Part shown: positions 8,965 to 63,731 of the stretch, in pieces
Position numbering within the stretch: position 1 is the first letter of the stretch
How the letters are laid out: each line of letters begins with the position of its first letter
Source of the DNA: an uncultured Verrucomicrobiae bacterium
GTDB taxonomy: Bacteria > Verrucomicrobiota > Verrucomicrobiia > Limisphaerales > UBA11358
DNA length: 64,000 nt
Reading direction: 5' to 3'
NCBI GenBank assembly: GCA_963820205.1
Contig: CAWFZJ010000016.1
Span: 4,493 to 68,492, forward strand
The notes under the pieces: generated by a model
Told to the model about the DNA's origin: nothing
Databases searched by the model: none
Seen by the model: only the letters and a program-made list of their open reading frames with translations
Made by a program: the position numbers and the translations under genes

Positions 8965-9054
8965 ATGCCAAAAAAAGTCCGCATCCCCACGCCGCTCCGC
9001 AAGTTGACCAACAACGAGGAGCGAATCGCCGTCAACGCCGCCATTTGCCTTTGA
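8965..9054 (+). pseudogene. duplicated 5' end of the CysO/MoaD-type carrier gene
   Basis: It reads MPKKVRIPTPLRKLTNNEERIAVNAAICL*. Region 8947-9043 matches 10016-10112 at 90 of 97 positions, including the AT-rich leader. Confidence 0.85.
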
Positions 9055-9079
9055 GCCGGATTGCCAGTAGAATTCTCGT

Positions 9080-9343: not shown

Positions 9344-9352
9344 ACTATCAGC

Positions 9353-10001: not shown

Positions 10002-10033
10002 ACCGGTTTTGCACCAAAATTGAAATTTAATTT

Positions 10034-49445: not shown

Positions 49446-49483
49446 TATGCGGTTGAAGGACCACGCAGCAGGGCGCGTGAGCA

Positions 49484-50332
49484 TTGGCCATGTCCGTTGT
49501 CCAATTGAACATGCAAGTACCAGGACGCACGGAGCAGGATGCCCGGCAACCCGGATCGGGAGCCTTCACTTTGATCGAGTTGCTCGTGGTGATCGCCATC
49601 ATTGCGATTCTGTCGGGATTGTTGCTGCCGGTGTTGAGCCGCGCCAAGGACCGGGCGCGCGATGCCAATTGCATCTCCAATCTCAAGCAGTGGGGCGTCA
49701 CCTGGCGACTTTATAGCGACGAAAATAATGACTCGTTCATGTCCGGCACCGCCGCCAATTGGGCACGGGGCGTCTGGGTGCTCGCATTCACCAACGGTTA
49801 TTCGCAAAAACCTCCGCTACTCTGTCCCAAGGCGATTGACCGGCGCGGGCCAGGCGACCAGGAAGTTCACACCACACCGGACAACCCGAACGCGTTGGAT
49901 TATGGCGGTCCCACGACTGCGTATGATTTTCCCATCCCCGACCCGGCTAATCCCACGCTGCCATTGACCGCCAGTTATGGTCTCAATTGCTGGGTTTACA
50001 ATCCCGATACCAACAACATTCAGGGGCGTGATGCCAGTTTGCACTGGAGAAAATATGGCGCCGTGACCCAACCCTCGGTCACGCCGATGTTTCTGGACTC
50101 ACAGTGGCGCGGCGGCGGCCCGTATGCCACCGATCCGCCACCTGCTTTCAACGGGCAATGGCAATGGGTCGAGATGGCTTTCTTTGCCATCGCGCGGCAC
50201 GGCAAGGGCGTGAACATCGTTTATTTCGACGGTTCCGTGAACAATGTGCGGGCGAAGGATTTGTGGGGTTTACCGTGGCACAAAAACTACAACGCCGCGC
50301 CGAATCTTGTATTTCCAGACTGGATGAACTGA
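49484..50332 (+). CDS. prepilin-type N-terminal domain / DUF1559-like protein (tandem paralogue)
   Basis: It reads [42 protein letters not shown] and ends ..[14 protein letters not shown]. Its 5' end and about 35 nt upstream are near-identical to the preceding gene. Confidence 0.8.
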
Positions 50333-50366: not shown

Positions 50367-51113
50367 ATGACGGGCGTTCGGCTGCGATGTCAAAGTTCCG
50401 TGAATGTTGAAAAATACCGCGCTGCCGCCCGCCGCTGGTGGCGACAGGAAATCCGCCCGCTTTTAATCCTCGCGCTGGTCCTGTTTTCCATCCGGTCGTC
50501 TTTGGCGGATTGGAACGATGTGCCCACCGGCTCAATGAAGCCGACGATTCTCGAAGGCGACCGCGTTTTCGTGAACAAGCTGGCCTACGACCTCAAGGTG
50601 CCGTTCACCACCTGGCACATTGCCCAGTGGAGCAATCCGCAGCGCGGTGATATCGTCGTTTTCTTTTCACCGAAGGATGGCACACGGCTGGTCAAACGCG
50701 TCATCGGCCTGCCCGGCGACACCGTTGAGTTGCAAAATGAACGGCTGGTCATCAACGGCCAGCCCATGGAATACGCGTCACCGGATCCGGAGATGGCGAT
50801 GCAACTTTCCGAGGTTGAACGCGAGCGCGGCATTTTCGCGACGGAAAAACTTCCGGCTTGTCCGCACGCCGTAATGGCCATCAACGGAGTTCCGGCGATG
50901 CGCACCTTCGGGCCGGCGCCGGTTCCGGACGGCCACTATTTCATGATGGGTGACAATCGCGATAACAGCTATGATTCACGTTACTTCGGCACTGTGGCGC
51001 GTGGTCAAATTGTGGGCCGCGCCACGAGCGTGGTTCTTTCCCTCGACAAAAAGAATCACTGGCTGCCGCGCTGGAGTCGCACCTGTTCTTCACTGGAGAG
51101 CAAGGCCAAATAG
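50367..51113 (+). CDS. lepB: signal peptidase I
   Basis: It reads VPTGSMKPTILEGDRVFVNK ... GDIVVF ... LVKRVIGLPGD ... YFMMGDNRDNSYDSRYFG. Confidence 0.9.
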   Translation: MTGVRLRCQSSVNVEKYRAAARRWWRQEIRPLLILALVLFSIRSSLADWNDVPTGSMKPTILEGDRVFVNKLAYDLKVPFTTWHIAQWSNPQRGDIVVFFSPKDGTRLVKRVIGLPGDTVELQNERLVINGQPMEYASPDPEMAMQLSEVERERGIFATEKLPACPHAVMAINGVPAMRTFGPAPVPDGHYFMMGDNRDNSYDSRYFGTVARGQIVGRATSVVLSLDKKNHWLPRWSRTCSSLESKAK

Positions 51114-52212
51114 AAATACCTGCATCATACCGCTTTGAGCATGTAATTGCACTATTCTCGGTTGCGGTAACGTTTGCTTGTTCGACGAGCCAGGGATGAG
51201 AAACCAGCCTCCGCACACATTCTGGATTTTCACACAGCGGACGCAGTTCCTCGCCGATGGATTGCTCTAGGTCGGCAATCGTATCCCACAGCACATTGCC
51301 GATCCGATCTTTCACCACGTCGCCGATGGCTTCCGTCGGATTGAGTTCCGGACTATAGGGCGGCAACGACACCAAATGCACATGCTCCGGCACAACGTGC
51401 AGTTCTGGCTTGGGGTGAAACCCGGCTTGATCCCAGATGACCACATGTTCGGCTTCCGGGTCGCTCGTTGCCAGATGCTTCAAAAACAGGTCGCTCATCT
51501 CCAGGCTCACTTCCGGCAGGCACAAAAACTCCGCCGCATTTTGACCGTCTACTTCCAGCGCCGAGTAGAGGTAGCCCCATTCATATTTGGTTCGATACGG
51601 CACGGTCGGACGCACGCCTCGCAGCGTCCAGCACTTGCGCACTACCGGAATCAAACCGTAACGGTGTTCATCGGCCACCCACAGGCGTACCGGTCTTCCA
51701 CCAGCCACGTTCAAGTTCGCCAACTGTTCGCCAAGCGTTTGTTGGAACTGTTCGGCGGCAGCCGCGTCTTTTTGCGCGTGGGTCTTGCGCGGCACTTTCA
51801 AGACCCCGCCCAATTTTCCCAGCCAGTAATACACCCCGGGTAGTTTCAGGCGAATCGCATGCCGCTCGCGCAACCAGTGCTGAATCTCCTTGGCCCGCTT
51901 CCACCGGCCCGATTGCAACCCGGCCAGCAGTTCCTGGCGGGCATCGCCTTTGATTTGCGGCGCGGCCCCGCCACCGTGCTGTCGCTCCAGCAGTCCGGCC
52001 AAACCACCGGCCTTGAGCGCGTTCATCCAGTCGAAAAATCGACGACGACTGATGTCCAACTGCTCGGCAATCTGCGCCGCAGTCATCTGTCCGCTGGCGG
52101 CCAGTCGCGCGGCGAGCAGGCGCTGCTGGCTTTTCACATCCGTGCAAATCCGCAACTCATCAGCGACAGCCTGCGCCAAATCAGGCCGGTTCAAATGGTA
52201 TCGCTTCGGCAT
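50941..52212 (-). CDS. IS630-family DDE transposase (ORF runs past the IS end)
   Basis: It has an N-terminal HTH and then WVADEHRYGL..VIWDQAGFH..LPPYSPELNPTE. There is no stop codon inside the element, so the frame continues 187 nt into the 3' end of lepB on the opposite strand. Confidence 0.8.
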   Translation of the reverse strand: MPKRYHLNRPDLAQAVADELRICTDVKSQQRLLAARLAASGQMTAAQIAEQLDISRRRFFDWMNALKAGGLAGLLERQHGGGAAPQIKGDARQELLAGLQSGRWKRAKEIQHWLRERHAIRLKLPGVYYWLGKLGGVLKVPRKTHAQKDAAAAEQFQQTLGEQLANLNVAGGRPVRLWVADEHRYGLIPVVRKCWTLRGVRPTVPYRTKYEWGYLYSALEVDGQNAAEFLCLPEVSLEMSDLFLKHLATSDPEAEHVVIWDQAGFHPKPELHVVPEHVHLVSLPPYSPELNPTEAIGDVVKDRIGNVLWDTIADLEQSIGEELRPLCENPECVRRLVSHPWLVEQANVTATENSAITCSKRYDAGISIWPCSPVKNRCDSSAAASDSFCRGKEPRSWRGPQFDHAPQCRSNVNHSCYRDCHPS

Positions 52213-52483: not shown

Positions 52484-54037
52484 TTACGCCGTGGTTGCCG
52501 TGAAGACTTTTTTGTCCCGGGCGCAGATCAGTTGTGTGACATAACGGCCTGAGAGCGCGGATGGGGGCAGTCCGCCGCCCGTTTCCACCCACTGGCCGGC
52601 CATGTAGAAATTTTTCAATCCCGGCAGCGTGTACGGAAGGCGGCGACCCAGAATTTGCGGCGTGGGGAGCCAGCCCTGATAGCTCCCCTGCCAGTTGCCG
52701 GTCCAGTGTTCGTAAGTGGCCGGTGTCGCCAGGTCGGTCTGATCAACGTGCCGCGCCAACCCCGGAAATCTTTGATCCAGAACGCCCACCATCTCGTCAA
52801 TCAGTTCTTTTTTTGCCTTCCGATAATCGGCGGGACGCTCGTTCTTGAGTTTGGTCCAATATTCGTAGTTGCTGGAAAACCTTGCGATCATGACGGTCCG
52901 GCCCGCCGGGCAGTAGCCGTAGTCGGGCCCAAACACCGTCACTTCAAACCGGTCCTGCCGCCTGATGTCACCGGCCTTGAGCGGTTGCGGGAACGGCAGG
53001 CTCACGGCGTGGGGCGCATCGGGGAAAATCTGGTTGATGCCCAAAGACACCTGGATCAGCGGTTGGAAAATGTTCCACTGGCGGTAGGCTTCAAGAATTC
53101 GTTTGTTGACATAACGGCCGCCGAGCATTTCGAAAATCGTCGCGTGACCGTCGGCGCAGGAAACCACCGTGGCCGCCGGAACCACCGTTCCGTCGGCGCA
53201 TCGCACACCCGTGGCCCGCCCGTTCTCAACCGTCACCGCCGTCGCCCGGGTGTTCAATCGCAGGACGCCGCCGAGACGGGCGTAACAGCCGGCCATAGCC
53301 GTCGAAATGCCGCGCGAGCCGCCGGCCACGTAGCCGGCGTTTTTTCCAGACCGCAGGGCCAGCACCATCACCAGCACCAGCGCCGACAGGCATCCATCGC
53401 CGGTGGCGGTCAGCAGCGCTTCGCGGAGGAACGGGCTCCGGTAGCCCGCGAGATAGTCGGCCAGCTTCAGATTTTTCCAGCCAAAGACGACCGGCAGCAT
53501 GGGGAAATAGTGGAAGAGGAGCTTCAGTTTTGCCGGACCCGACATGAGTTCCAGCGGATTCTCCAGTGGCGGATCGATCTGTGTGCAACGGCGCACCGCG
53601 CGGAAAAGTTTGTCTATGCGGCCGGCATCCTCCGGCGAGATTTTTTTGCAGTTCTCCGCGAGCCGGTCCAGGTCCGTTGACAGGGAGAGGATCTGGCCGT
53701 CCCGGCCTTCGACGCGCAAAAATTCGTCGTAATGGATGATCTCCCGGCCGTCGAACACACCCAACTCATTCCATATCTGGTGAAACGTCGAGGAGGGATG
53801 GGTGCCGACCAGCCAGCTCAGGCAGCCGTCGAAGACATACGGTCCGCGGTCCCAAGCCGTGCACAACCCGCCGGGGTCGGGGTTCATTTCCAGAATCTCC
53901 GTCCGGTAACCGTTCATCTGCAGATAGCAACCGCAGGCCAGACCGGCAACACCGCCCCCGATGATGACAATTTTTTCGTCGGCGGTTCCGGGCGCCGCCG
54001 CAGCCGAAGAATGACTGTCTCCGCCCGGAGCGCTCAT
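52484..54037 (-). CDS. phytoene desaturase (CrtI)-family FAD/NAD(P)-dependent oxidoreductase
   Basis: It starts at an ATG overlapping the upstream stop (ATGA). The dinucleotide fold is KIVIIGGGVAGLACGCYL..GYRTEILEMNPDPGGL. The length and C-terminal pattern are typical of CrtI-like enzymes. Confidence 0.8.
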   Translation of the reverse strand: MSAPGGDSHSSAAAAPGTADEKIVIIGGGVAGLACGCYLQMNGYRTEILEMNPDPGGLCTAWDRGPYVFDGCLSWLVGTHPSSTFHQIWNELGVFDGREIIHYDEFLRVEGRDGQILSLSTDLDRLAENCKKISPEDAGRIDKLFRAVRRCTQIDPPLENPLELMSGPAKLKLLFHYFPMLPVVFGWKNLKLADYLAGYRSPFLREALLTATGDGCLSALVLVMVLALRSGKNAGYVAGGSRGISTAMAGCYARLGGVLRLNTRATAVTVENGRATGVRCADGTVVPAATVVSCADGHATIFEMLGGRYVNKRILEAYRQWNIFQPLIQVSLGINQIFPDAPHAVSLPFPQPLKAGDIRRQDRFEVTVFGPDYGYCPAGRTVMIARFSSNYEYWTKLKNERPADYRKAKKELIDEMVGVLDQRFPGLARHVDQTDLATPATYEHWTGNWQGSYQGWLPTPQILGRRLPYTLPGLKNFYMAGQWVETGGGLPPSALSGRYVTQLICARDKKVFTATTA

Positions 54038-55471
54038 CCGTGACGCACCTTTCCACTGGAGGTCAAGGGAATGTCGGCGACCAAATCTATCGAGGATGGC
54101 ACCTTCTGGCTCGAGAGCCGGCGGCGGCAAAATGCAATGATGTCCTCGGTGGTGGCCGTGGCATTGCCGTCGCGCAATTGCACTTCGGCGTGGATGGATT
54201 CGCCCAGTTGCGGGTGTGGCCGGGTGGTCACGCGCGAACGCAGCACCGCCGGGTGCTGGTCCAAAACGGCGGCGACCTCCTCCGGAAACACCTTGTGGCC
54301 GGCCACGTCAATCACGGTCTTCAGCCGTCCATCAATAACAATTCGCCCGGCGTCGTCGCGATGCGCCAGGTCGCCGGTCAGAAACCAGCCGTTGCACAAA
54401 ACTTCTTCGCGCCGTTTTTTGGGATTCAAATAGCCGGCAAACATTCCCGGCCCGCGCAAGCCAAGCTGTCCGGTCTGTCCGGTCGCGAGAGGTTTCATCT
54501 GGTCGTCCAGGATGACCGCATCATAACCCGGCAGCGGACGGCCCACCGCCTCGGGATGTTCCGCGGCGTCCGCCAGATTCATGAGCGGCACGCCCACCTC
54601 GATGATGCCGTAGCCCTGCGACACCGGCACGTGAAACCGCGCCTGGAAATCCCGCGCGATCTGGGGATGCAGCCGGCTGGAGACGGACATGATGCGCCGG
54701 AGCGACGGCGGCAGGGCGCGGCCGGAGCTTTCGGCTTTCAACATGCGCACGTGCATGGGGGTCACGTAAAGAAACGTGGCTTCGTGGATCTGGGCCGCGT
54801 CCAAAATGCTGCCGGCCAGGTAATCGGGGCTGACCACGATGGTGGCCCCGACTTCGAGATACAGGAGGATGGAGGCAAAAAAGTGATACGACATCGGCAG
54901 GACCCAGAGCACTTTGTCGCGGGTGGTGAGAGCCAATCCCTGATTGGCGCCATGCGTCCGCTCCAGCACACTCTGATGCGTCAATATCACACCCTTGGAC
55001 GCGCCGGTCGTGCCGGAAGTGAACCGCAGGAAGGCGGCGCCTTCGACCCAGGGCGCCAGCGGTGCCGGCGGCATGGCCAGCCGCGTTAACCGCATGGATG
55101 TGCCGTCCTGACAATTTCAGATCGCAGCCCTCGCCGGCCGGCGGGGTGGCGCTGCCGTCATCGAGAATCGCGCACAACGGCGCGCGCGCCAGCATCTCCG
55201 ACATTTCGTCCGGTTTGAGCAGGTGATGAATGGGCATGACGACCGCGCCGCTGCCCAGGGCGGCCAGGCAGCCGATGACGAGCGCGCGTCCGTTGCGACC
55301 GCGCACGCCCACGCCCTGGCCGCCGCCCACGCCCAACCGTTCAAGCTGGACGCGGAGGGCTTCAATTTCGCGCCAGAGCGTCTGGTAATCCAGCGGACCG
55401 GCGGCATCAATGATCGCCGTCTGGCTGGGCCATTGGCGCGCGGCTTGGGAAAGGGTTTCGTAAACGTTCAT
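54034..55471 (-). CDS. AMP-dependent synthetase/ligase (acyl-CoA or acyl-ACP ligase), frame interrupted near 55100-55115
   Basis: The N-terminal 120 aa are in ORF 54521..55471. The A3 core LRFTSGTTGASKGV, then GYGIIE, WFLTGDL and a terminal ..SSGKV are in ORF 54034..55095. Confidence 0.8.
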
Positions 55472-55520
55472 GCTTTTTAATCCTAATCTTAATCTTTCTC
55501 GTAATCTTGTTCTACGCCGT

Positions 55521-56801
55521 TCATTGATTCATTTGTTGTCGAATGGTCTCCACCGCCTCGTCGAGCGGACGGCCCAAGGCTTGGAAGGCGGCAACGGTTC
55601 CCGCCGCCCAGCCGGTGGCCAGCACCGTGCCGATGACCCGGGCCGAAGTCATTGCCCCGGCTTCCGCCGAAAGGCAGCGGCCCGCTGCCAGCACGTTATC
55701 CAATCCCGCCGGACGCAGACAGTCCAGGGGAATTTCATAGTAATCGCTCTCGCTGAAAAAAGTCATTTCCGGCCGCGAGCCGTTTCCCCAGCGCTCCATC
55801 GGCCAGGCGCCGCGGGCAATTCCGGCGGGAAACTTGCGGGCGGCCAGTACATCTTCATCGTCCAGCCGTGCGCGTCCCCGAATGCGGCGGCCGGAACGGA
55901 TGCCGATTTGTGGGGCGATGGAGGCAAGGCGCGCGTTCCGGCACGAGGCAATGTTCTTCACCATGAACCGCTGGAGTTGATCCACCAACATGCGGGCCTC
56001 GCGTTCCCAGTCGGTGACCTGCTGCCAGAGCGGGCGGTTTGATTCCGCGACGGCCAGATTGAGTTTGAGGGCCAGATGGCCATTGCGGTCCATTTCTGGA
56101 ACCAGCGCCAGCCGCTCGCAGGCAGCCGGCAAATTTCCCGACTCGACAGCCCGGCGCAATTCGCGGCGAACTTCGAGCAGGCCGCGTTCCACCAGACCGG
56201 GATCAATGTTCTCCATCACAAATACCAGGGACGGCGCCTGGTCGGCGATGCCGCTTTCCACACCAGCGCCCGCGAGGGCGGCGACCGTCGCCTCGCCGCT
56301 GCAATCCACGACGGCGCGGGGGCGTACGACGAGCGCCTGGTTCCACGCCAGGGCGCGGACCTGGAGCAGGCCGGATCCTTCGGCCTGCGCCTCGGCGACC
56401 GTGGCGTGCAACGCCACGGTGACGTTTCCGGACTCGCTGATCACCGCATCGGCCACGCGGGCAAAGGCCGGTATGGGAAACGGCAGTACCCAGAGGCCGG
56501 CCTCCAGCCGCATTGGCCGGCAACCGGCAGCGCGTTGCAGCCGCGAGGCGTATTCCCGCACAAATCCGCCGGCGACCGGCAAGGCTTCCGGGTTCGTCGT
56601 GTCCCGCAGATACAATCCGCAGATGGTTCCCACTTGGGCGGCCGTGGCCAGCCCGCCAAGAAAACCGTATCGCTCCAGCAACAACACCTGCGCGCCGGCC
56701 CGGCCGGCTGCCGCGGCCGCCGCCACGCCCGCCGCGCCGCCGCCGACGACCAGCACATCGCAGGAAACGGCGTCCGGGCCGGTTGGAAGAGAATTAGTCA
56801 T
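55521..56801 (-). CDS. FAD-dependent oxidoreductase
   Basis: It starts at an internal ATG (MTNSLPT). The fold motif is CDVLVVGGGAAGVAAAAAAGRAGAQVLLLERYGFLGG. Confidence 0.75.
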   Translation of the reverse strand: MTNSLPTGPDAVSCDVLVVGGGAAGVAAAAAAGRAGAQVLLLERYGFLGGLATAAQVGTICGLYLRDTTNPEALPVAGGFVREYASRLQRAAGCRPMRLEAGLWVLPFPIPAFARVADAVISESGNVTVALHATVAEAQAEGSGLLQVRALAWNQALVVRPRAVVDCSGEATVAALAGAGVESGIADQAPSLVFVMENIDPGLVERGLLEVRRELRRAVESGNLPAACERLALVPEMDRNGHLALKLNLAVAESNRPLWQQVTDWEREARMLVDQLQRFMVKNIASCRNARLASIAPQIGIRSGRRIRGRARLDDEDVLAARKFPAGIARGAWPMERWGNGSRPEMTFFSESDYYEIPLDCLRPAGLDNVLAAGRCLSAEAGAMTSARVIGTVLATGWAAGTVAAFQALGRPLDEAVETIRQQMNQ

Positions 56802-56808
56802 TTGACTG

Positions 56809-58209
56809 TCATCTTGCGTACTGGCCGTAGTACCGGATGTACTTCCACTGCGGCCGCACATTCAACATCATTGTGATCTTCTGCCCCAAGCGAACCGAGA
56901 ATTTGCGCCAATCCGCCGGTGAAGTCCATTCCGCGCGCCGCCGCGCAATGCGGTCAAGGTTTTCAATGGTGCGGTCGGCCAGCCCGGGTGAGAGATAATA
57001 AGCCGGGTTGAAGAGGTCAAAATCGGGCTTCACCTGCCCTTCCCGCACGGCAATTTCGGCCAGCGGCGTGCCTTCATAAACGCGGATGCCAAAGGTGGCA
57101 AAAACGGCATGGGCCAGCGCGCACCCGTTCAAAAAATTCTGCGTGTCCTCGACGTCCGCCCACGTTTCGCCCGGACCGCCAAACAGCAGGTAAATCACGA
57201 ACGGCAGACCGGCATCGCGCGCGGCCTGTAGAGCAATCCGGGTTTCTTCCTGTCCAAACGGCTTGCGCAATACCTCCAGCATCTTGGCCGAGGCCACATC
57301 CTGTCCGAACTCCACCCCGTCGCAACCGGCCTGTTTCATCGCGTGCGCCAGTTCCGCATCGAAACCCGTGGGATTGCAAAAGGCCGACCAGCGGACCGGC
57401 AGACGGCGGCGGCCCAGCTCACGGCAGACGGCCAGGGCATGCTCGCGCGGGTCGTTAAAGACACTGTCCACGAAAAAGAAATGGCGCACCTTTGATCGGA
57501 CGGCCACGTCTTCAATTTCCCGGACCACCGCTTCCGGCGAACGCAGGCGATAGCGCCGCCCTTCCAGTTGGGGGTAGATGCAATAGATGCACTGGAACGG
57601 ACATCCGCGCTTGGTTTGCACGCCAACAAACCCGCCCCGCCGCTCATACGCCACATAATTGCACAGGTCGTGGGCTGGCGGCGACAGCTCGCCCAACCGC
57701 TCAACCGCACGGGCGGTCAGAACAGTGATGGGCACATCACTTTTGGGCGCGGTAATGACGCCGGCAATTCCCTCGAGAGAGCGTCCGGCCTCCAAACGTG
57801 CGAGCACCTCCGGGAAGGCGCGTTCGCCTTCGCCGATCACGCCGCACTCAGCCTTGAGGCGGCTCATCCAGCCGTGGGGCGAGACCGAAAAGCCGCTGCC
57901 GCCCAGGATCAACGGTCCCTTGAAATGGCTACGCACCGTTTCGGCCAGTTCGCGCACCTCGTCAAAATACAGTTTCGGCGCAAACGCCCAGCAGTTGTCG
58001 AGATTGCGGATGCCAAACGCCACGGCGTGGTATCCGTTCTTTTCCAGCGCCTGGCGGAGCGCTTTTTGCGGCGATGAGGCCAGGCCCAGATCCAAAAAAT
58101 CCACGGCATGGCTGGCGTCGCGGGCGGCGGCGGCCACGCACAAGGTTCCCAGCGGCGCCACCGGGTAGGGAGAACGTTCCCGGTTTGTGGCCACCAGGAG
58201 CACGTTCAT
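56809..58209 (-). CDS. B12-binding-domain / radical SAM protein
   Basis: The N-terminal flavodoxin-like cobalamin domain (MNVLLVATN..LGTLCVAAA..) is followed by GCPFQCIYCIYP (CxxxCxxC). Confidence 0.85.
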   Translation of the reverse strand: MNVLLVATNRERSPYPVAPLGTLCVAAAARDASHAVDFLDLGLASSPQKALRQALEKNGYHAVAFGIRNLDNCWAFAPKLYFDEVRELAETVRSHFKGPLILGGSGFSVSPHGWMSRLKAECGVIGEGERAFPEVLARLEAGRSLEGIAGVITAPKSDVPITVLTARAVERLGELSPPAHDLCNYVAYERRGGFVGVQTKRGCPFQCIYCIYPQLEGRRYRLRSPEAVVREIEDVAVRSKVRHFFFVDSVFNDPREHALAVCRELGRRRLPVRWSAFCNPTGFDAELAHAMKQAGCDGVEFGQDVASAKMLEVLRKPFGQEETRIALQAARDAGLPFVIYLLFGGPGETWADVEDTQNFLNGCALAHAVFATFGIRVYEGTPLAEIAVREGQVKPDFDLFNPAYYLSPGLADRTIENLDRIARRRAEWTSPADWRKFSVRLGQKITMMLNVRPQWKYIRYYGQYAR

Positions 58210-59540
58210 GACACATCCTCCTCCAGCAGGGCGGAGCGCAGTCCCTGTTCCAGCGTGTCCACCTCGGACGCGTTCAGACAGTCATCCACCCACGACAGCA
58301 GAACGGAGAGCCGTCCGCTGAAATTCCAGAACACCACGGTCAACCCCGGCGGCCACCAGGTCGGAACCAGATGCTCAACCGCCCGAATTCGTCCGCCCAG
58401 CATCTCGGTCATCCCGGCGCAGGTCTCGCCCGAATCCGAAAAGCAGAGGGTGGCGAACTTGCCGCGGGTGGGCTGTCCCAAGTGGCGTATGTAATAATTC
58501 AGCGGCAGCGGCTTGAACATCTCCAGCGCCGCCATGCACGACTCCGGAAACCGGGTGCGGATCTGGTCCATCATCTGGCGGGTTAGTTCGCTGATGATGC
58601 TGGTCAGGCTGCCGGCCTGGCCCGGCTCGATGCGGAAGAACAGGATGGAAAGATGGTTTGAGAAAATGGGGCCTTTGGCGTTGCGCCGGCGGGTGTCATG
58701 CGCCACGGGAATCAAATAGGCGCCGTCCCGGTTGCCGCGCCGGGTGGCGACGGTGTGCAGCGCCCGGAGCGTGCCGGCGAGGAGAAAGTGACTGCGCCGG
58801 AAGCCGGCGTTGAGGTGCTCGCAGCGGGCAGCGATACGCGCTGTTTCCTCCGTGCTGAAGGTCACGATGCGGTAGTGGTTGCGATGCGGGCCGGGCGTGC
58901 GTTTTTCCGGCAACAGCGAGAAAAGCGGTTCGCTTCCGGACTTGCGGAGCCATTCCACCGAGCCGCGCGCCAGCTTCACGTTGCGCCACCATTCGGCCAG
59001 GCTACCGCCAAGCTGCTTGGGATGGACCAGGTCCTCGATGGCCGGCGCGCCGTTTCCCCCGTTGCCATCGTTCAGATGCAGCCAGATTAATTCCGCGCCG
59101 CGCGCATCCATCAGCGCATGGTTCCAGGAAAAAACCAGGTGCCGGGTCCCGTCGGCATGCCGCACCAGGTCGAACGCCAGCCCCGGACCCCGGCTGGCAT
59201 GCAGGTCGCGTCCGAGAACCGCCGCCGGCAGCACCCCGGGTTCGTACCCGTTGCCATCCTGATGATTGTGCTCGAAAAAAATCGGGCCGGACCGCGACGA
59301 TGTGCGCCAGAGCGGGGGAAACACCGGCAACGGACGGCTGAGACGCACACGGGCCAGCCAGTCCAGAACCGGCGAAGTTTCCACACGACGGCGCAGCCGG
59401 TCCACATCCAGACCATCTTCCAAGCGGAGGGCCACGCGGCAGATGTAACCCGGCAGCCCAAGCCGCCGCAGCTTGTGGTCCTGGCCGTGCATGTAATAGT
59501 CACCAGCGGCCAATCGAATCTGGCGGGGCGCGTCAGGCAT
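58206..59540 (-). CDS. condensation-domain-like acyltransferase
   Basis: This 444-aa ORF carries WNHALMDARG at the position of the HHxxxDG motif of condensation / PapA5 / WS-DGAT-type acyltransferases. It has a 4-nt overlap with the downstream gene. Confidence 0.6.
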   Translation of the reverse strand: MPDAPRQIRLAAGDYYMHGQDHKLRRLGLPGYICRVALRLEDGLDVDRLRRRVETSPVLDWLARVRLSRPLPVFPPLWRTSSRSGPIFFEHNHQDGNGYEPGVLPAAVLGRDLHASRGPGLAFDLVRHADGTRHLVFSWNHALMDARGAELIWLHLNDGNGGNGAPAIEDLVHPKQLGGSLAEWWRNVKLARGSVEWLRKSGSEPLFSLLPEKRTPGPHRNHYRIVTFSTEETARIAARCEHLNAGFRRSHFLLAGTLRALHTVATRRGNRDGAYLIPVAHDTRRRNAKGPIFSNHLSILFFRIEPGQAGSLTSIISELTRQMMDQIRTRFPESCMAALEMFKPLPLNYYIRHLGQPTRGKFATLCFSDSGETCAGMTEMLGGRIRAVEHLVPTWWPPGLTVVFWNFSGRLSVLLSWVDDCLNASEVDTLEQGLRSALLEEDVS

Positions 59541-59560
59541 GAGCAGTGTCCACCCCGGGC

Positions 59561-59836
59561 TCAGGGTGAAGCGTGGTTGTTGCCGGCCAGTTCGGCGATG
59601 CAGTTGGCCAGCGTGGCCACGGAAGCCAGGTTTTTGCCCGTCAGGTGGGAATCCGGCACGCTGACGCCGAAGGTGCGCTCGCAGTAGAGCAGCAGCTCGA
59701 CCAGCGCAAACGAATCAATGCCGGCCTTGGCCAAGGGGCTGTTTTCATCAAAGTCCGCTCCGTCGGCTACATAGTTCTTCCGGGCAAACTGGCAAAGTTG
59801 CTCGGCAATCGTCTTGGGATCCTTCTGTAAAGTCAT
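59561..59836 (-). CDS. acyl carrier protein
   Basis: This is a 91-aa ORF. The motif AKAGIDSFALVELLL includes the phosphopantetheine Ser in DSF/L. Confidence 0.8.
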   Translation of the reverse strand: MTLQKDPKTIAEQLCQFARKNYVADGADFDENSPLAKAGIDSFALVELLLYCERTFGVSVPDSHLTGKNLASVATLANCIAELAGNNHASP

Positions 59837-59964
59837 ACCTCAGTCCGGACGGTGGCGGAACCGCGGTCTTTCCTGACCGCCGGAGAAAAAATTATTGTCT
59901 CTGCTCATCCCCGAAATTATGACCCGCACCGGGAGACGGCGTCAAGCATGGAAGCTGGGAGAAG

Positions 59965-61290
59965 TCAAAATCCGTCAAAATTATTTTGCAATTGTTCGGC
60001 CCGGGCCATCCGGCGCTGGGAGAAATTGATAACCCACGAGGCGATGCTCGCCTGGGTCAGCGGCAAAGGCAAGCGGGACACCATGGACGGCAGGCTGTAG
60101 AAATCCCGGTACAGCCGGCGAATGTCATTTTCCATGGACCCGGGCGTTCCGTACGGCGGCCGGATGTAACAAATCTGCCCCGGCCAGCGGTCAATTTCCC
60201 GGTCATTCACAATGCGGCCTTCACTTCGCATCCGGTCGTAGAGCGGCGTGCCTTTCACCGGCGTGAGAATGTTGAAGTAGGCCACCGGCGCCTTGTGTTC
60301 CTGGAGGAACTTGAGCGTGTCGTCGAAGGCGTTCCCGGTTTCGCCGTCCCAGCCGAAAATGAAATTCAGGGAATAGCTGATGCCGCGGCGGCGGAGGCCG
60401 GCCAGCATTTCGCCGTACCGGCTGGTTTTGTTAAACGTCTTGTGCATGCTCGCGAGCGTGCCGGCGTTGATGCTTTCCATGCCGATGTTCACGTGCAACA
60501 GTCCGCTCCGCTGGGCCAGGTCCATGAACGGCGCGTCGTTGCAGAGATACGATGACCAGAGCGCCGACCAGCGCAAGCGGAGGGGAATCATCGCCTCCAT
60601 CAATTCCATCGCGTGGCTCCGCTTGCCGCCAAAATTGCTGTCGCCGAAAAAAATGCTGCGCGAGCGGCATTGCCGGATTTCCGCAATGACCTCCGGCACG
60701 GGCCGGCAACGGTAGTGTTCTCCCAGCAGGAACCGTTCGGAGCAGAATTCACAGTGGAACGGGCAGCCCCGCGATGAGGTGACGGCAAAGGTCCGGAACG
60801 GGCGGTAGCGCCGCAGGTCCAGCAGGTCGTAACGCGGCAGCGGCAGGCCGGCCAAGTCCGGCAGCGGATCGGCCCGGTAGAGCTTGTTCAACCGCCCGCC
60901 ACAGGCGTCCTCCAACATGCGCGCCCAGATGGTCTCGCCTTCGCCAACGCCGACCGCGTCGCAGTGCTCCGCCGCTTCGTCCGCGTGGAAAAAGGTGTGG
61001 GGACCGCCTAGGATAACGGGCACGCCGCGCCGGCGAAACTCATCCGCAATGTCGTAGGCGCGGATCGAGTTGAGCGTGGAGGAGCTGATGGCGACGAGGT
61101 CGAAGCGTTTATCAAACGGAACCGCGTCCAGTTGTTCGTCCAGAAGCGTGACGTTCCAATCCGCCGGGGTCAGGGCCGCGAGATAAGGCAGGGTCAACGG
61201 CACCACGCTCCGGGAGCGGGCCTTGAACACGGTGCGATCCGCCTTGGAACGATAGTAGGACGGCTGGATGATGAGAAACTGGTGGCTCAT
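59965..61290 (-). CDS. B12-binding-domain / radical SAM protein
   Basis: It starts at an internal ATG (MSHQFLIIQPSYY). It has a cobalamin-binding-like N-domain followed by GCPFHCEFCSE (CxxxCxxC). Confidence 0.85.
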   Translation of the reverse strand: MSHQFLIIQPSYYRSKADRTVFKARSRSVVPLTLPYLAALTPADWNVTLLDEQLDAVPFDKRFDLVAISSSTLNSIRAYDIADEFRRRGVPVILGGPHTFFHADEAAEHCDAVGVGEGETIWARMLEDACGGRLNKLYRADPLPDLAGLPLPRYDLLDLRRYRPFRTFAVTSSRGCPFHCEFCSERFLLGEHYRCRPVPEVIAEIRQCRSRSIFFGDSNFGGKRSHAMELMEAMIPLRLRWSALWSSYLCNDAPFMDLAQRSGLLHVNIGMESINAGTLASMHKTFNKTSRYGEMLAGLRRRGISYSLNFIFGWDGETGNAFDDTLKFLQEHKAPVAYFNILTPVKGTPLYDRMRSEGRIVNDREIDRWPGQICYIRPPYGTPGSMENDIRRLYRDFYSLPSMVSRLPLPLTQASIASWVINFSQRRMARAEQLQNNFDGF

Positions 61291-61466
61291 GCCGGCTCTG
61301 GCGTCACTCCGGTGCTTGATGTTGTTATCGTTTGCCGGGCTTTGCAAATCCGCAGCCCAGGGCGGGTCCAGATTGGCGCAGGAAAAGAGATGGGGCAAGC
61401 CAGAAACGCCGGGGCAGAATGACTGATGACCAAACCATGCCGCTCCACGGAATGACGAATGACTAA

Positions 61467-62381
61467 GAGCTTATCCCTAAATAACGATTTTACGTATTCA
61501 ACACATTCGCCAGCAAATCAAGGCCGAAGCGCAATGCAACAAGCCCAGATAATTCTCCGCCTTCTTTTCGTACCGCACCAGCAACTTGCGGAAACGGTTC
61601 AACCACGAATGCGTTCGTTCCACCCGCCATCGGCGGGCAGGCTGCTTCCGCCCGCAGATCGGTTTGGTTTCCTGGCCGATTTGCCGCACCTGCGGAATAT
61701 AACCGCGTTTCCGCATGATCGCGGCGGCGGGCTTGCCGCTGTAGCCTTTATCGGCACACAGGTTTTGGCGACACCGACGGGTTGGCTTGGGTCGCCGAAT
61801 CACAATGCCGTCCAGTGTTTCGGCCAGCAGTTTCACATCATGCCGGTTGGCCCCGCTGACGATAAGCGAGAGCGGGACGCCAGTCCCGTCGACCAGCAAA
61901 CTGCGTTTGGTGCCTTTTTTTCCCCCGATCCGTGGGGTTGTTGCCTACCGCTTCCAGCGCCAAGGGAGCTTTGCCCTGAGTGCCGTCAATGCTCTGCCAT
62001 TCCCAGGCAATCCCTTCCAGATCATCGTATTCGGCCAAACCGGCCCGCCACAGTCGGCGGAAGAATCCCGCCGCGCGCCACTGCTGAAAGCGACGGTGAA
62101 CCGCCGTGGCACTGCCAAAACTCTTGGGCAACGCTTTCCATTGACAACCCGTCCGCAACACATACACAATGGCAGCGAACACGGAGCGCGATTTTAACGG
62201 CTTGCGCCCGCCTCCGGGACGCCGCTGGTATTTTTGATCTTTGGCCCGCGCCGCGCGCACTGGAACCAGCGGCTCGACCCGAGTCCAGAGTTCATCGGAC
62301 ACTTCCCAAGAGTAAACTTTGCTCATGCCGACAACGTAACAAAGCCCACACACGGTGTAAAGATTATTTAGGGATAAGCTC
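61467..62381. mobile_element. IS5-family insertion sequence with 18-bp perfect terminal inverted repeats and TAA target duplication
   Basis: IRL is gagcttatccctaaataa (61467-61484). The identical sequence occurs in reverse complement at 62364-62381. TAA lies at 61464-61466 and at 62382-62384. Confidence 0.85.
61498..62326 (-). CDS. IS5-family transposase in two frames joined at an A7 tract
   Basis: orfA reads MSKVYSWEVSDELW..VLRTGCQWKALP..NPTDRGKK. orfB reads (GTKRS)LLVDGTGVPL..CADKGY..RWRVERTHSWLNRFR. The junction is GGGGGAAAAAAAGG at 61913-61926. orfB is +1 relative to orfA, so loss of one A would fuse them. Confidence 0.85.
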
Positions 62382-62631
62382 TAAACCATAATGACGAAAG
62401 AAACTCAAAGTCCGAAGCTCGAACGCGCGGTGAGGTTAACCGGTTTGGTCATTTGGATATTTGAGCATTCTTTAGTCATTATGGTTTAGAGCTTAGGGTT
62501 TTTGCCTGGCCTGCCGCCTGCTAATCTGCTTGCCTCGCGGTGTTTTTCTGGAACAGTTATGCCGCATGGAAACGCCCGAAACAAACCAAACCGCAACCGG
62601 CATTCCGCGCCCGCCGCTGAAGGAAGTGACG

Positions 62632-62996: not shown

Positions 62997-63731
62997 TCAG
63001 TACAGCCCGCCGCGAAACATCTCGACCACTTTCACCCGGCCACCCGCCCAGTAACAGGTCGGCGGAAAGTTAAACCTTCTTGCCGCCCGGTCGTAGATGA
63101 GTTTGACCGGACGCGCCGGCAGGTTCGGATCGTAGGCTTCAAACTGGATTTCTCCCTCCGATTCCGAGAGTCCGAACAACACAATTCCGTGGTTGATGGT
63201 GATGCGGGGGAACCGGAAGAGATGCACGATGGGCGCCGCGCCCTCGCGCACGCGTTGCGCCAGTTGCCCGGCCATACGCTCCTGATGCCAGGCCGGGACC
63301 ATGAACACCATGCGCCAGTGGCTGCGCACAAAATAGGATTGCCACGGGCCGCCGCATTCCGCCTTGAGAAGGGATTCATGAGCCTGGCTGAAGGCGCGCA
63401 GACCGTCGTAGCCGGGGATTAACACCCTGTTCGATTCCGCGCTTGCCCGGCGGGGATTGCTGGAGACGACCTGGCGGATGAGCCGGCGATAAGATTCCGC
63501 GTCCACCGCTGGCCGATCCGGTTCGAAACGGGCGTGATAAAAAAACTGCCGCGCTGACCTGACGATTACGAAACAACGATGGGTATAAACGGGTGGCGGA
63601 TCACAGGGAGAAACACTCATCGCCCCCGTTGCCGGATCGAAGCGATACTGCCAGACCAGTTCGTTGGCAAAAGTAAAGGTGTCCCGCTCGAACCGGAACG
63701 AGCGGGCACAGTGATCTGGCGGCGAACCCAT
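62997..63731 (-). CDS. conserved hypothetical protein
   Basis: This is a 244-aa ORF with coding-like composition. A possible Cys..His..Asp arrangement is present (THRCFV, INHGIVLF, YDPN). Confidence 0.65.
   Translation of the reverse strand: MGSPPDHCARSFRFERDTFTFANELVWQYRFDPATGAMSVSPCDPPPVYTHRCFVIVRSARQFFYHARFEPDRPAVDAESYRRLIRQVVSSNPRRASAESNRVLIPGYDGLRAFSQAHESLLKAECGGPWQSYFVRSHWRMVFMVPAWHQERMAGQLAQRVREGAAPIVHLFRFPRITINHGIVLFGLSESEGEIQFEAYDPNLPARPVKLIYDRAARRFNFPPTCYWAGGRVKVVEMFRGGLY

Follow-up and report, generated by a model that had tools for sequence, protein, structure and literature searches.

Organization of the locus

The window, which is the whole stretch of 64,000 nt that was analysed, carries seven tightly spaced genes on its minus strand, between positions 52484 and 61290. 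ORF calling and domain scans reproduce the coordinates given in the initial annotation, and domain and motif scans agree with all seven gene identities that it had assigned. The gene at 59965-61290 encodes a cobalamin-binding radical-SAM protein, here called rSAM_A, which matches PF02310 and PF04055 and has the CxxxCxxC motif. It is followed by a stand-alone carrier protein of 91 aa (59561-59836; PF00550, E 3.8e-08), which has its phosphopantetheine serine in a GIDS motif, and by a stand-alone protein of 444 aa with a condensation-domain fold and an NHALMD motif (58206-59540), which is called here the C-like protein and is the marker of the cassette described below. A second cobalamin-binding radical-SAM protein, rSAM_B (56809-58209), has the motif CPFQCIYC and scores 337.9 bits against TIGR04072. 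The last three genes encode a FAD-dependent oxidoreductase of the PF12831 family (55521-56801; E 7.7e-82), an acid ligase of the ANL superfamily (54034-55471; PF00501 and PF13193), which is frameshifted, and a flavoprotein of the CrtI/amine-oxidase family (52484-54037; PF01593, E 5.4e-17).

The C-like gene and the rSAM_B gene overlap by 4 nt, the ATG of the CrtI-like gene overlaps the stop codon of the ligase gene as ATGA, and intergenic gaps within the cluster are of 7-49 nt, with a single gap of 128 nt before the carrier gene. This spacing is operon-like. The start codons chosen in the initial annotation are favoured by the alignments of more distant homologues, which begin at residue 37 of the longest ORF for rSAM_A and at residue 21 for the FAD-dependent oxidoreductase. 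Four other features are found around these genes, all on the minus strand: the gene of an IS630-family transposase (50941-52212; NF033545, 166 bits with a cut-off of 100), an IS5-family insertion sequence (61459-62495), a DUF8321/DUF8322-family gene of 244 aa (62997-63731) and the 3' end of a DUF4410-like gene, which is truncated by the end of the window (63751-64000).

Conservation of the gene cassette

The arrangement of these genes is far beyond chance, since their order is preserved in 10 species-level Verrucomicrobiota genomes, in 80 metagenome contigs and in 7 further contigs, at least three of which come from other phyla. Across about 90 Verrucomicrobiota loci, the conserved core is formed by the carrier, the C-like protein, rSAM_B, the PF12831 flavoprotein and the ligase. 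The functional unit is a cassette of four to five genes, and not the seven genes that had been taken as one unit. The strong co-occurrence across genomes, which the initial annotation had left to be checked, is seen in the following counts. The carrier gene lies upstream of the C-like gene in all 82 Verrucomicrobiota-type loci, rSAM_B is immediately downstream of it in 56/62, and the flavoprotein and the ligase are present in 42/43 and 35/35 loci, respectively; the flavoprotein is also found in loci L096, L097 and L099. Neither tailoring step is obligatory, as six of the 62 loci have no rSAM_B and locus L011 has no flavoprotein.

The remaining two genes, rSAM_A and CrtI-like, are accessory: rSAM_A directly precedes the carrier gene in 16 of 44 loci, and the CrtI-like gene follows the ligase gene in 15 of 30. 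In L042, L052 and L055 the two adjoin each other on the opposite strand, and in L052 a KS/CLF pair lies beside rSAM_A. Outside the Verrucomicrobiota-type loci, the core is found in unchanged order with 29-53% identity in MAGs of Desulfobulbaceae (L097), Sumerlaeia (L098) and Phycisphaerae (L100), in the planctomycete-like contigs L094 and L096, and likewise in L099. At least four bacterial phyla thus share the order of genes in the cassette.

Genes around the cassette in related genomes

In relatives, the Verrucomicrobiota core sits within a larger conserved locus, which in the present sequence would extend beyond base 64000. Its upstream half encodes an MMPL exporter, a Lip_A-type acyltransferase, a LolA protein with weak similarity to the flexirubin LolA2 (LolA2_flexi match), a FabA/ApeI-like dehydratase and a DUF8321/8322-family member. 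The first four are directly upstream in 16-17 of the 27 loci with enough flank, and the last is upstream in 26 of 44 such loci. Downstream, a second ligase is found in 15/30 loci, many of which also have an adjoining GT2 gene.

Two genes of the window correspond to this upstream half. The 62997-63731 gene gives no match in a Pfam scan of its own and is 62% identical to a protein of L012 that carries PF26995/PF26997; in relatives it immediately precedes the cassette. The DUF4410-like fragment (63751-64000) aligns in tblastn to residues 169-251 of a 251-aa protein of L001 with 89% identity; this gene belongs to the conserved upstream half, and its PF14366 match is weak. The statement that the cluster has no ketosynthase or transporter holds within the window but not for the locus of relatives, which has the MMPL exporter and in some cases a KS/CLF pair. 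Relatives thus have genes for an exporter and a set that is a candidate for handling the acceptor, all of them outside or missing from the window.

Carrier protein, ligase and flavoproteins

The best solved relatives of the carrier are the Bmp1 carrier domain (6cxt, 3.5e-08), PltL (2.3e-06) and aminoacyl carrier proteins, which places it nearer to prolyl/aminoacyl carrier proteins than to fatty acid synthase ACPs. Its NCBIfam matches include AsbD and AmcB, and this closeness to type II peptidyl and aryl carrier proteins, together with a C-like protein nearest to NRPS C domains, would fit a pathway of the VibE/VibB/VibH type whose product is a small, water-soluble N-acyl or O-acyl metabolite, with the lipid-export neighbours as a lineage-specific association. 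Minimal cassettes free of lipid genes also exist: L095, L096 and L098 have no LolA, MMPL or acyltransferase among the neighbouring genes, and outer-membrane export is thus not universal to the system. We consider a soluble product improbable, however, because KS, ACP, acyltransferase, LolA or MMPL genes adjoin the cassette in Verrucomicrobiota, Phycisphaerae, a 'Brocadiaceae'-labelled MAG and Desulfobulbaceae, and rSAM_B comes nearest to a curated family defined by a role in lipid biosynthesis.

The ligase is a short ANL enzyme of the ACS/aryl type, with 478 aa when intact. Its best PDB matches are oxalate-, malonyl- and feruloyl-CoA ligases, enzymes of small acids and aryl acids, so a long-chain fatty acid is not indicated. 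At the site that corresponds to FDxS of amino-acid-activating enzymes, it has LPMSYHFFAS, a segment of the ACS type. The pre-formed fatty acid assumed in the initial annotation is not supported, given the aryl/ACS-type ligase, the aminoacyl-like carrier and an rSAM_B close to aromatic methylases.

Among solved structures, the PF12831 flavoprotein has homologues only across the dinucleotide-binding motif. The CrtI-like protein scores 105 bits against TIGR02734, whose cut-off is 238, and matches gamma-carotene desaturase in the PDB (4rep, E 3.4e-14).

Radical-SAM enzymes

rSAM_A is a member of no curated family; its best NCBIfam match is TIGR04072 with only 95 bits (cut-off 360), followed by HpnJ and BchE. 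rSAM_B, with its 337.9 bits, lies slightly below the same cut-off, and orthologues that adjoin C-like genes straddle it with 354 and 370 bits. TIGR04072 ('rSAM_ladder_B12') is a curated family of B12-binding/radical SAM proteins for "ladderane-type" lipid biosynthesis. The next-best NCBIfam matches of rSAM_B are BzaD (179 bits) and the Trp 2-C-methyltransferase family (142 bits), and in the PDB it matches TsrM (6wte, E 5.7e-38). BzaD and TsrM, both methylases of aromatic carbons, are thus the nearest characterised enzymes. Glu273 of TsrM, which in the structure paper reportedly blocks radical chemistry, aligns to a valine in rSAM_B; from this alignment, canonical radical chemistry is proposed for rSAM_B.

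This relation to aromatic-carbon methylases raises the possibility of an aryl or phenolic pigment of the aryl-polyene, flexirubin or alkylresorcinol type. The ligase would load an aromatic or unsaturated acid, rSAM_B would methylate an sp2 carbon, the C-like protein would link the acid on the carrier, as an ester, to a phenol, for example a resorcinol, and LolA and MMPL would anchor and export the product. The ligase is about as similar to feruloyl-, coumarate- and benzoate-CoA ligases as to fatty-acid ligases. Many relatives have an aryl-acid-type second ligase, a flavin halogenase-like gene and an aromatic hydroxylase beside the cassette, L084 has also a DpgA-like type III PKS, and the MMPL, acyltransferase, LolA, ApeI-like dehydratase and GT2 genes mirror the set for export in the clusters of aryl polyenes and flexirubins. 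However, L001-L007, which represent the lineage of the window, have neither a halogenase nor a type III PKS within 10 kb, and most loci have no KS, KR and thioesterase genes as required for a polyene. The similarity of rSAM_B to BzaD and TsrM is also far under the family cut-offs, and the valine in place of the TsrM glutamate argues against a TsrM-like polar methylase. A pigment of this type is a minority reading that we regard as unlikely.

The likeness to ladderane-candidate gene sets, pointed out in the initial annotation, has a concrete basis in the TIGR04072 scores, and the cluster includes a phytoene-desaturase-like gene as well as a dedicated carrier, with a KS/CLF-like pair beside rSAM_A and CrtI in some relatives. 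'Ladderane' calls of antiSMASH are also reported as common in Verrucomicrobia (PMC7298704). A true pathway to concatenated cyclobutane lipids, as proposed for anammox bacteria, is nevertheless extremely improbable here. The published annotation of the anammox clusters has no C-like, PF12831 or such ligase gene (PMC4790861; PMC10139942), the role of the anammox cluster is itself unproven (PMC10139942), and ladderanes are known solely from anammox bacteria (PMC7298704). amxACP is not among the 60 carrier-protein PDB matches listed, the FabZ and FabF homologues of relatives match ordinary FabZ/FabF at least as well as anammox-type entries, and Desulfotalea has a related cluster yet no cyclobutane lipids.

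Fold and putative function of the C-like protein

The C-like protein of the window matches no Pfam or NCBIfam model, and PF00668 is matched by 12 of 42 distant members of its family, which comprises 867 clusters at 50% identity. Its AlphaFold2 model has a pLDDT of 93.5, and the best match of the model in a Foldseek search of the PDB is AzeD (8s6l, E 8e-22, TM 0.70), followed by NRPS C domains, TRI3 and others. H141, D145 and N295 are invariant across 132 sequences. The model thus predicts with confidence a CAT/condensation fold with an invariant His/Asp pair, which bears out the domain type assigned from the sequence.

AzeD is a stand-alone dehydratase of the C family (bioRxiv 10.64898/2026.07.17.738954). 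Since this closest solved structure is a dehydratase, transfer, the role first given to the C-like protein, is not its sole possible chemistry. It could instead be a tailoring dehydratase, epimerase or cyclase that acts on a carrier-bound intermediate, with release left to a different protein, for example the Lip_A-type acyltransferase; an acyltransferase gene is often close by. Like AzeD, the Verrucomicrobiota clade has another residue, here Asn, in place of the first His of HHxxxDG. We hold this role to be quite unlikely, because identity to AzeD is just 16% and canonical C domains score nearly equal, the full HHxxxD is kept by most of the wider family (consensus SWHHxLMDARG), and L095, L096 and L098 have no alternative candidate for the releasing enzyme.

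Proposed pathway

The gene identities, folds, conserved order and co-occurrence are established, and we give a probability of about 50% to a carrier-dependent pathway that tailors and transfers one building block of an envelope lipid, or of a lipid-like pigment, that is exported. Against it we count the prolyl/aminoacyl kinship of the carrier, the small-acid and aryl-acid matches of the ligase and the dehydratase activity of AzeD. The step order, the substrate, the acceptor and all the chemical reactions that follow are those we infer. The ANL ligase would adenylate a carboxylic acid, other than an alpha-amino acid, and load it on the dedicated 91-aa carrier. The TIGR04072-like rSAM_B would then introduce a C-methyl group or another C-C change on the tethered acid by canonical radical chemistry, and the PF12831 flavoprotein would catalyse an oxidation or a desaturation, joined in some lineages, this one included, by rSAM_A and the CrtI-like desaturase. 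The condensation-fold enzyme may off-load the acyl group to a hydroxyl or amine acceptor by its His/Asp site. In Verrucomicrobiota, the Lip_A-type acyltransferase and GT2 could further acylate or glycosylate the product, and genes next to the cassette encode LolA-like and MMPL proteins that could carry it to the outer membrane. No product is assigned to this gene set in the literature searched.

Damage to the copy in this genome

The frame break noted in the ligase gene is real in this sequence. One extra T at about position 55111 (ATTG[T]CAGG), which is not in a homopolymer, causes a +1 frameshift relative to six relatives, each with an intact 478-aa ORF, and splits the gene into the ORFs 54521-55471 and 54034-55095. 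On the downstream side, homology to all relatives ends exactly at the stop codon of the CrtI-like gene (52484), and the second ligase, GT2 and phosphodiesterase-like genes that follow in relatives are found nowhere in the 64,000-nt window. The IS630 transposase gene marks where the conserved locus breaks off, and the downstream half is replaced beyond it.

The IS5-family element lies upstream of rSAM_A, at about 170 nt from the start of that gene. It has two transposase ORFs that overlap each other (61838-62353 and 61498-61899), with the domains PF13340 DUF4096 (E 2.6e-24) and PF01609 (DDE_Tnp_1)/PF13586 (E 1.2e-13), and terminal inverted repeats of 26 nt (61459-61484 and 62364-62389), with an additional solo copy of the repeat at 62468-62495. 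The segment is missing from L001-L007, and relatives have only about 260 nt at that place. Both insertion sequences described as framing the cluster are confirmed; they are recent insertions specific to one genome, and not boundaries of the cluster. Together with the frameshift, they suggest decay of this copy. With its ligase frameshifted, an insertion sequence ahead of rSAM_A and the downstream half replaced after IS630, the pathway of this genome probably works poorly or is no longer active.

Gene content of the cluster and proposed pathway

The cluster is formed by seven genes on the minus strand, which encode, in the direction of transcription, a protein with B12-binding and radical SAM domains (rSAM_A, 59965-61290), a carrier protein that matches PF00550 and has its serine in a GIDS motif (59561-59836), a stand-alone condensation-domain-like protein of 444 aa with an NHALMD motif and no Pfam or NCBIfam match (C-like protein, 58206-59540), a second protein with B12-binding and radical SAM domains (rSAM_B, 56809-58209), a flavoprotein that matches PF12831 with an E-value of 7.7e-82 (55521-56801), an ANL ligase with PF00501 and PF13193 domains (54034-55471) and a flavoprotein of the amine-oxidase/CrtI family (CrtI-like, 52484-54037). 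The ORF listing and profile scans bear out the initial annotation, which had described seven minus-strand genes at these coordinates, and the start codons it had chosen are backed by more distant homologues. Gene spacing is operon-like, and the sole sizeable gap, of 128 nt, precedes the carrier gene. A sigma-70-like match lies within this gap, at 59916-59945 on the minus strand (TTGACG, an 18-nt spacer and CATAAT, 10/12), and its site would be compatible with a promoter of the core cassette's own, in a scan that is overall at chance level: promoter and terminator matches in the window are no better than in shuffled sequence.

This is a genuine and strongly conserved set of genes, still uncharacterised, within the known class of carrier-protein-based lipid/pigment clusters. 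Its best-supported reading, which we hold with a probability of roughly one half, is a pathway that loads a substrate, tailors it while tethered, off-loads it and then exports it to the outer membrane. All of the chemistry is what we infer from the observed gene content, folds and linkage. The ligase would load a carboxylic acid onto the carrier, and the tethered acid would be modified by rSAM_B and the PF12831 flavoprotein, probably with the participation of rSAM_A and the CrtI-like protein in this lineage. The C-like enzyme would off-load the acid to a hydroxyl or amine acceptor and, in Verrucomicrobiota, the product would enter a route of acyltransferase, GT2, LolA and MMPL proteins to the outer membrane.

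Conservation of the core cassette in Verrucomicrobiota

Homologues of the C-like protein at 60-95% identity number in the hundreds, and all the named ones come from Verrucomicrobiota MAGs (Verrucomicrobiae, Limisphaerales), several of them from peat or bog samples. The mapping of the window proteins covered 10 genomes at species level and 80 contigs from metagenomes, and neighbours were counted only on contigs with enough flank; as these loci are mutually related, the counts do not represent independent events. The carrier gene is immediately upstream of the C-like gene in 82/82 loci and rSAM_B immediately downstream in 56 of 62, while the PF12831 flavoprotein and the ligase are found in 42/43 and 35/35 of the loci, respectively. 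A CrtI-like gene follows the ligase in 15 of 30 loci, and rSAM_A precedes the carrier in 16 of 44. Core and accessory genes are clearly distinguished despite the relatedness of the loci. The initial annotation had treated the seven genes as one set that should recur in other genomes; the core five (carrier, C-like, rSAM_B, PF12831 flavoprotein and ligase) do so, with their order kept across phyla, whereas rSAM_A and the CrtI-like gene are accessory.

Both accessory genes also occur in other arrangements. rSAM_A and a CrtI-like gene of the window's type are together on the opposite strand in three distant loci (L042, L052 and L055), and in L052 (3229-9137) they form, with KS and CLF-like KS genes, an opposite-strand block divergent from the cassette, which recalls in gene content the anammox set of FabF2/FabF, phytoene-dehydrogenase-like (PD-like) protein and B12-rSAM. 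There are two CrtI-like types. Close relatives with ligases 91-94% identical to that of the window have CrtI-like proteins with either 87% (L001, L004) or about 60% identity (L002, L003, L006, L007), whereas L042, L052 and L055, with C-like proteins only 64-65% identical, have CrtI-like proteins 89-92% identical to the window's. Since these identities are out of step with those of the ligase and the C-like protein, replacement or exchange of the CrtI-like gene is suggested.

The wider locus and its similarity to aryl-polyene clusters

Upstream of the cassette, genes for an MMPL protein, a Lip_A-type acyltransferase, LolA and a FabA/ApeI-like dehydratase form a set in 16-17 of the 27 loci with enough flank, and a DUF8321/8322-family protein comes next in 26 of 44 loci. 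The window counterpart of the latter is a 244-aa ORF (62997-63731, 62% identity), the next conserved gene upstream is the partial one at 63751-64000, and the remainder of the locus lies beyond base 64000. Downstream, and convergent with the cassette, many relatives carry a second aryl-acid-type ligase and a GT2 gene, often together with flavin halogenase-like and aromatic-hydroxylase genes. Beside the cassette in L084 (16904-19739) and L012 (15639-20406), two relatives' loci, the genes seen include a DpgA-like type III PKS (in L084), a flavin halogenase-like protein, an aromatic hydroxylase and a possible methyltransferase. These PKS, halogenase and hydroxylase neighbours hint at a resorcinol or phenolic partner molecule.

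The wider locus of the relatives resembles the aryl-polyene, flexirubin and xanthomonadin (Ape) clusters in its MMPL/RND-like exporter, LolA-like protein, lysophospholipid/Lip_A-type acyltransferase, ApeI-like dehydratase, GT2, aryl-acid-type ligase and small carrier, and in some loci also in a flavin halogenase-like protein. The Ape export and anchoring set (MMPL-type, LolA-like, LPLAT-type acyltransferase and GT2) stands beside the cassette in relatives, and its part in the window is beyond base 64000 or lost. This likeness favours a pathway to an aryl or phenolic pigment, of the aryl-polyene/flexirubin kind, which is nevertheless unlikely. KS/CLF, ketoreductase and thioesterase are absent from most loci, and the window and its close relatives L001-L007 have none of these, nor the dehydratase pair of a polyene pathway; KS and CLF-like genes are confirmed in L052, and KS genes adjoin the cassette in the distant L094, L097 and L100. 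To our knowledge, the C-like protein, the B12 rSAM and the PF12831 flavoprotein are not part of the described Ape or flexirubin pathways.

The cassette in other phyla

In the seven distant contigs read (L094-L100), all of which have a carrier gene directly before the C-like gene, identities to the window proteins are 29-35% for the C-like protein, 43-53% for rSAM_B, 38-39% for the flavoprotein, 43-49% for the ligase and 37-47% for the carrier. That the gene order is kept at such divergence is the main evidence that the cassette genes act together. A Desulfobulbaceae MAG (L097) has carrier, C-like, B12-rSAM, PF12831 and ligase genes, and its divergent neighbour operon (KS, PD-like, KS, ACP, acyltransferase, PaaK-like ligase and rSAM/SPASM) resembles in gene content the Desulfotalea cluster of Rattray et al. 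(Rattray 2009). A second B12-rSAM accompanies the carrier, C-like, B12-rSAM and ligase genes of a Sumerlaeia MAG (L098), as well as the carrier, C-like, B12-rSAM, PF12831 and ligase genes of contig L099. The order is ACP, KS, CLF, LolA, an unknown gene, MMPL, carrier, C-like and B12-rSAM in a Phycisphaerae MAG (L100), and carrier, C-like, PF12831 and ligase in a planctomycete-like contig (L096). A MAG labelled Brocadiaceae (L094) carries KS, ACP, acyltransferase, rSAM/SPASM with a carrier domain, C-like, B12-rSAM and ligase genes, followed by an HpnR-like B12-rSAM, a thioesterase and KS genes.

In L094 the carrier domain is fused to the C-terminus of the rSAM/SPASM protein (8607-10004; Pfam Radical_SAM, SPASM and PP-binding), directly upstream of the C-like gene, and the window carrier aligns to positions 9726-9965 at 46% identity. 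Contig L095 has the order GCV_H-like, carrier, C-like, B12-rSAM and unknown gene; the first of these, directly before the carrier gene (9323-9718), encodes a glycine-cleavage-H-like protein with a lipoyl-carrier fold, and a 403-aa protein without family match takes the ligase/flavoprotein position. A metagenome scan with a C-like alignment (A3) returned only loci of Verrucomicrobiota type with at least 59% identity, and among the matches listed in a profile search with another (A4) there was only the dense Verrucomicrobiota clade, with no new names. A plasmid search with the C-like protein gave no match.

Fold and possible function of the C-like protein

A first structural model of the C-like protein, built with 23 close sequences (pLDDT 57), was replaced by an AlphaFold2 model built with 132 sequences (pLDDT 93.5, pTM 0.93), in which a two-lobed CAT-like fold is predicted. 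A Foldseek search of the PDB gives 303 matches with E <= 0.001, and the best 50 are nearly all C, E and Cy domains or other CAT-fold acyltransferases with TM values of 0.6-0.7. The best match is AzeD (PDB 8s6l; E 8e-22, TM 0.70), followed by SrfA-C, LgrA, CDA-C1, TRI3 and others. The gene had been called condensation-like from its sequence, and the confident model supports this by placing the predicted structure in the condensation/CAT superfamily. The second His and the Asp of the HHxxxDG motif are present in the window protein (NHALMDARG). Across the 132 sequences, H141, D145 and N295 do not vary, and the conservation of G148 is at least 90%. The consensus of the wider family, SWHHxLMDARG, keeps HHxxxD, while the Verrucomicrobiota clade has N-H instead. 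PF00668 is matched by 12 of 42 distant family members (best E 5.8e-10), whereas the window protein has no Pfam match at E <= 0.01, and the family profile matches the C domain of bacitracin synthetase with an E-value of 0.016. With 867 clusters at 50% identity, these stand-alone condensation-fold proteins make up a large undescribed family that is covered by neither Pfam nor NCBIfam models, and each locus examined pairs them with a carrier protein.

AzeD is the founding member of a 'C-standalone' dehydratase clade with 35 reported homologues, and its substrate is a free bicyclic carbamate in an NRPS pathway (bioRxiv 10.64898/2026.07.17.738954). Both AzeD and the C-like protein are stand-alone, have about 435-445 aa and show a replacement of the first His of HHxxxDG, a likeness in favour of the C-like protein being a tailoring dehydratase and not a transferase. 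This function is rather improbable. The two proteins share 16% identity. They also differ in the size of their families, with 35 homologues of AzeD and 867 clusters of the C-like family, and the C-like protein is encoded directly after a carrier gene in every locus with enough upstream flank.

The off-loading role in the preferred pathway has parallels in VibE/VibB/VibH, SgcC1/SgcC2/SgcC5 and PapA5 with FadD/Pks, in which a discrete carrier is loaded by an ANL ligase and the acyl group then goes, through a free-standing condensation-fold enzyme with a His/Asp site, to a nucleophile that is not tethered. Structural matches include SgcC5 for the first model, which was of low confidence, and high-ranking NRPS C domains for the confident one. 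This shared logic would also suit a soluble conjugate of the VibH type as the product, an outcome to which we attach little probability. The identity of the C-like protein to VibH/SgcC5/PapA5-type enzymes is only 11-17%, the window protein does not match the PF00668 model, and none of these systems has radical SAM or PF12831 tailoring partners.

Carrier, ligase and flavoproteins

The carrier is nearer to prolyl, aminoacyl and aryl carrier proteins than to FAS ACPs, with Bmp1-CP, PltL and aminoacyl carriers at the top of its PDB matches (60 listed of 62, E <= 1). The ligase is a short enzyme of the ACS type, and it matches best to oxalate-, malonate-, feruloyl- and fatty-acid-CoA ligases. Because the intact orthologue, of 478 aa, aligns end to end with oxalate, malonate and feruloyl CoA ligases of 490-520 aa, there would be little room for a FAAL-specific insertion. 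The segment LPMSYHFFAS is at the position that, as we presume in comparing the two motifs, corresponds to the FDxS of amino-acid activators. The PF12831 flavoprotein has no solved relative beyond the FAD-binding motif. The CrtI-like protein scores 105.2 bits against TIGR02734, below the cut-off of 238, and has PDB relatives at E-values of 3.4e-14 and 6e-09; the analogous PD-like proteins of anammox bacteria lack CrtI activity (PMC4790861). A conversion of proline to pyrrole by PltF/L/E/A-like enzymes, a reading prompted by the best matches of the carrier and the halogenase-like neighbours, was ruled out because the ligase lacks the amino-acid-binding Asp motif and the flavoprotein is not of the acyl-CoA-dehydrogenase type.

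Radical SAM enzymes and the anammox ladderane-candidate cluster

rSAM_B scores 337.9 bits against TIGR04072 ('rSAM_ladder_B12', lipid biosynthesis B12-binding/radical SAM protein), below the cut-off of 360, and has the domains of this family, PF02310 (E 2.9e-10) and PF04055 (E 2.9e-23), with CPFQCIYC present. Its orthologues adjoining C-like genes score 327.8 (L094), 354 (L011) and 370.1 bits (L095, which passes), so the clade straddles the cut-off. The anammox enzymes Kuste3608 and Kuste2803 are also placed in this family; among the nearest 120 matches listed in the searches there were no anammox names. rSAM_A reaches only 95.4 bits against the same cut-off of 360 and cannot be assigned to any curated family. 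Among characterised enzymes, those nearest to rSAM_B are TsrM (6wte, E 5.7e-38) and BzaD (179 bits), which share with it an N-terminal B12 domain and the CxxxCxxC core of class B cobalamin radical SAM enzymes, but it scores far under both the TsrM and BzaD family cut-offs (450 and 500 bits). In the alignment to 6wte, a Val of rSAM_B takes the position of TsrM Glu273, which we take to be a fourth cluster ligand that prevents radical chemistry, so ordinary radical initiation would be expected in rSAM_B. No paper that assigns a product came up in literature searches on TIGR04072 and on genes of these types in combination.

The anammox cluster Kuste3603-3608, which is still a candidate for ladderane synthesis (PMC10139942), contains amxACP, amxFabZ, FabF2/FabF, PD-like and B12 radical SAM genes, and has related clusters in Desulfotalea and Geobacter (Rattray 2009). 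Common to both systems are a dedicated carrier, a TIGR04072-type cobalamin rSAM and a CrtI/PD-like flavoprotein in one lipid-type cluster; in the window, the CrtI-like gene (52484-54037) occurs with two B12-rSAM genes. True ladderane synthesis is, even so, hardly credible. The window has no KS, FabZ, FabF or CLF, unlike the anammox cluster with its amxFabZ and its KS/CLF-like FabF2/FabF pair. Its carrier is not amxACP-like: apo-amxACP structures are published (PMC10139942), and no anammox ACP is among the 60 PDB matches listed of 62. Conversely, anammox clusters have, by published annotation, no C-like gene, PF12831 flavoprotein or ACS-type ligase (PMC4790861). The hosts differ as well, being aerobic or peat Verrucomicrobiota in one case and anammox bacteria in the other. 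The KS and CLF-like genes of L052 and the upstream FabA-like genes of relatives match ordinary FabF/FabZ at least as well as the anammox entries.

Specific kinship to anammox proteins was rejected after PDB searches with carrier, FabF and FabZ sequences, which showed no preference over ordinary homologues. Kuste3335-3340 was likewise discarded as an instance of the same cassette, its published table giving kuste3339 as FabZ, 3341 as FabG, 3338 as a SAM methylase and 3335 as a GT (PMC4790861). Calls of 'ladderane' by antiSMASH are reported to be frequent in soil Verrucomicrobia (PMC7298704), and the cassette may be the gene set behind some of these vague BGC calls.

Modification of fatty-acid-type (ketoacyl) lipids by rSAM enzymes is almost unexplored, and a 2026 review names no proposed cases other than ladderanes and the Jaw5 product (PMC13459092). 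The anammox B12-rSAM has resisted expression, and no genetic system is available for its hosts (PMC10139942). The cassette places a near-TIGR04072 enzyme in a compact unit of four to five genes with its own carrier and predicted loading and off-loading enzymes and, since this unit is found in many non-anammox lineages, heterologous expression and mass spectrometry of the carrier protein would bring TIGR04072 chemistry within reach. This tractable entry, together with the large unmodelled stand-alone condensation-fold family, is the main value of the cassette. A more specific and distinctly speculative idea is that the cassette is a self-contained machine for an unprecedented radical C-C change on an aliphatic chain bound to the carrier (a mid-chain methyl branch, ring closure or cross-linking), and that the chain is then transferred to an envelope lipid. 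If true, peat Verrucomicrobiota, Planctomycetota and Desulfobulbaceae would contain modified lipids of a new class and, as the rSAM of the cassette would belong with the 'ladderane' rSAM family of anammox bacteria, solving the cassette would reveal the chemistry of the TIGR04072 family.

Damage to the window copy and mobile elements

The frame break suspected in the ligase gene at 55100-55115 is real in this sequence and corresponds to one extra T at about 55111, in the context ATTG[T]CAGG with no homopolymer, which splits the ligase into two ORFs; in six close relatives, the 478-aa ligase gene is uninterrupted. Other assemblies also have frame breaks in the cassette, at the 3' end of the ligase gene in L004 (about 15469) and in L099, where an rSAM gene (2944-4348) is called as two genes, so some of these frameshifts may be assembly errors and not biology.

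An IS5-family element of about 1 kb (61459-62495) contains two transposase ORFs with DUF4096 and DDE_Tnp_1 domains, 26-nt terminal inverted repeats (61459-61484 and 62364-62389) and an extra solo repeat (62468-62495). In relatives, the upstream conserved gene and rSAM_A are separated at this site by only about 260 nt. On the other side, homology to every relative ends exactly at the CrtI stop codon (52484), where an IS630 transposase gene follows, and none of the relatives' downstream genes (phosphodiesterase-like, second ligase and GT2) is found in the 64-kb window. The two IS elements proposed to frame the cluster are both present but, given the missing element in relatives and the stop of homology at 52484, they are lineage-specific insertions and not its natural borders. 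The pathway copy in this genome is probably impaired, whatever the chemistry, and its degraded state tempers the value of the finding.

Over about 170 nt (50941-51113), the 423-aa IS630 transposase ORF runs into the 3' end of a signal peptidase I gene encoded on the plus strand (50367-51113), and the long C-terminal tail of the transposase ORF is probably read-through past the true end of the IS. An ECF-type sigma factor gene is located at 47268-48440, and two neighbouring genes at 48636-50332 encode proteins with a prepilin-type N-terminal methylation motif and DUF1559. DUF1559 genes of this kind are typical of Planctomycetes and Verrucomicrobia, which is consistent with the taxonomic assignment.
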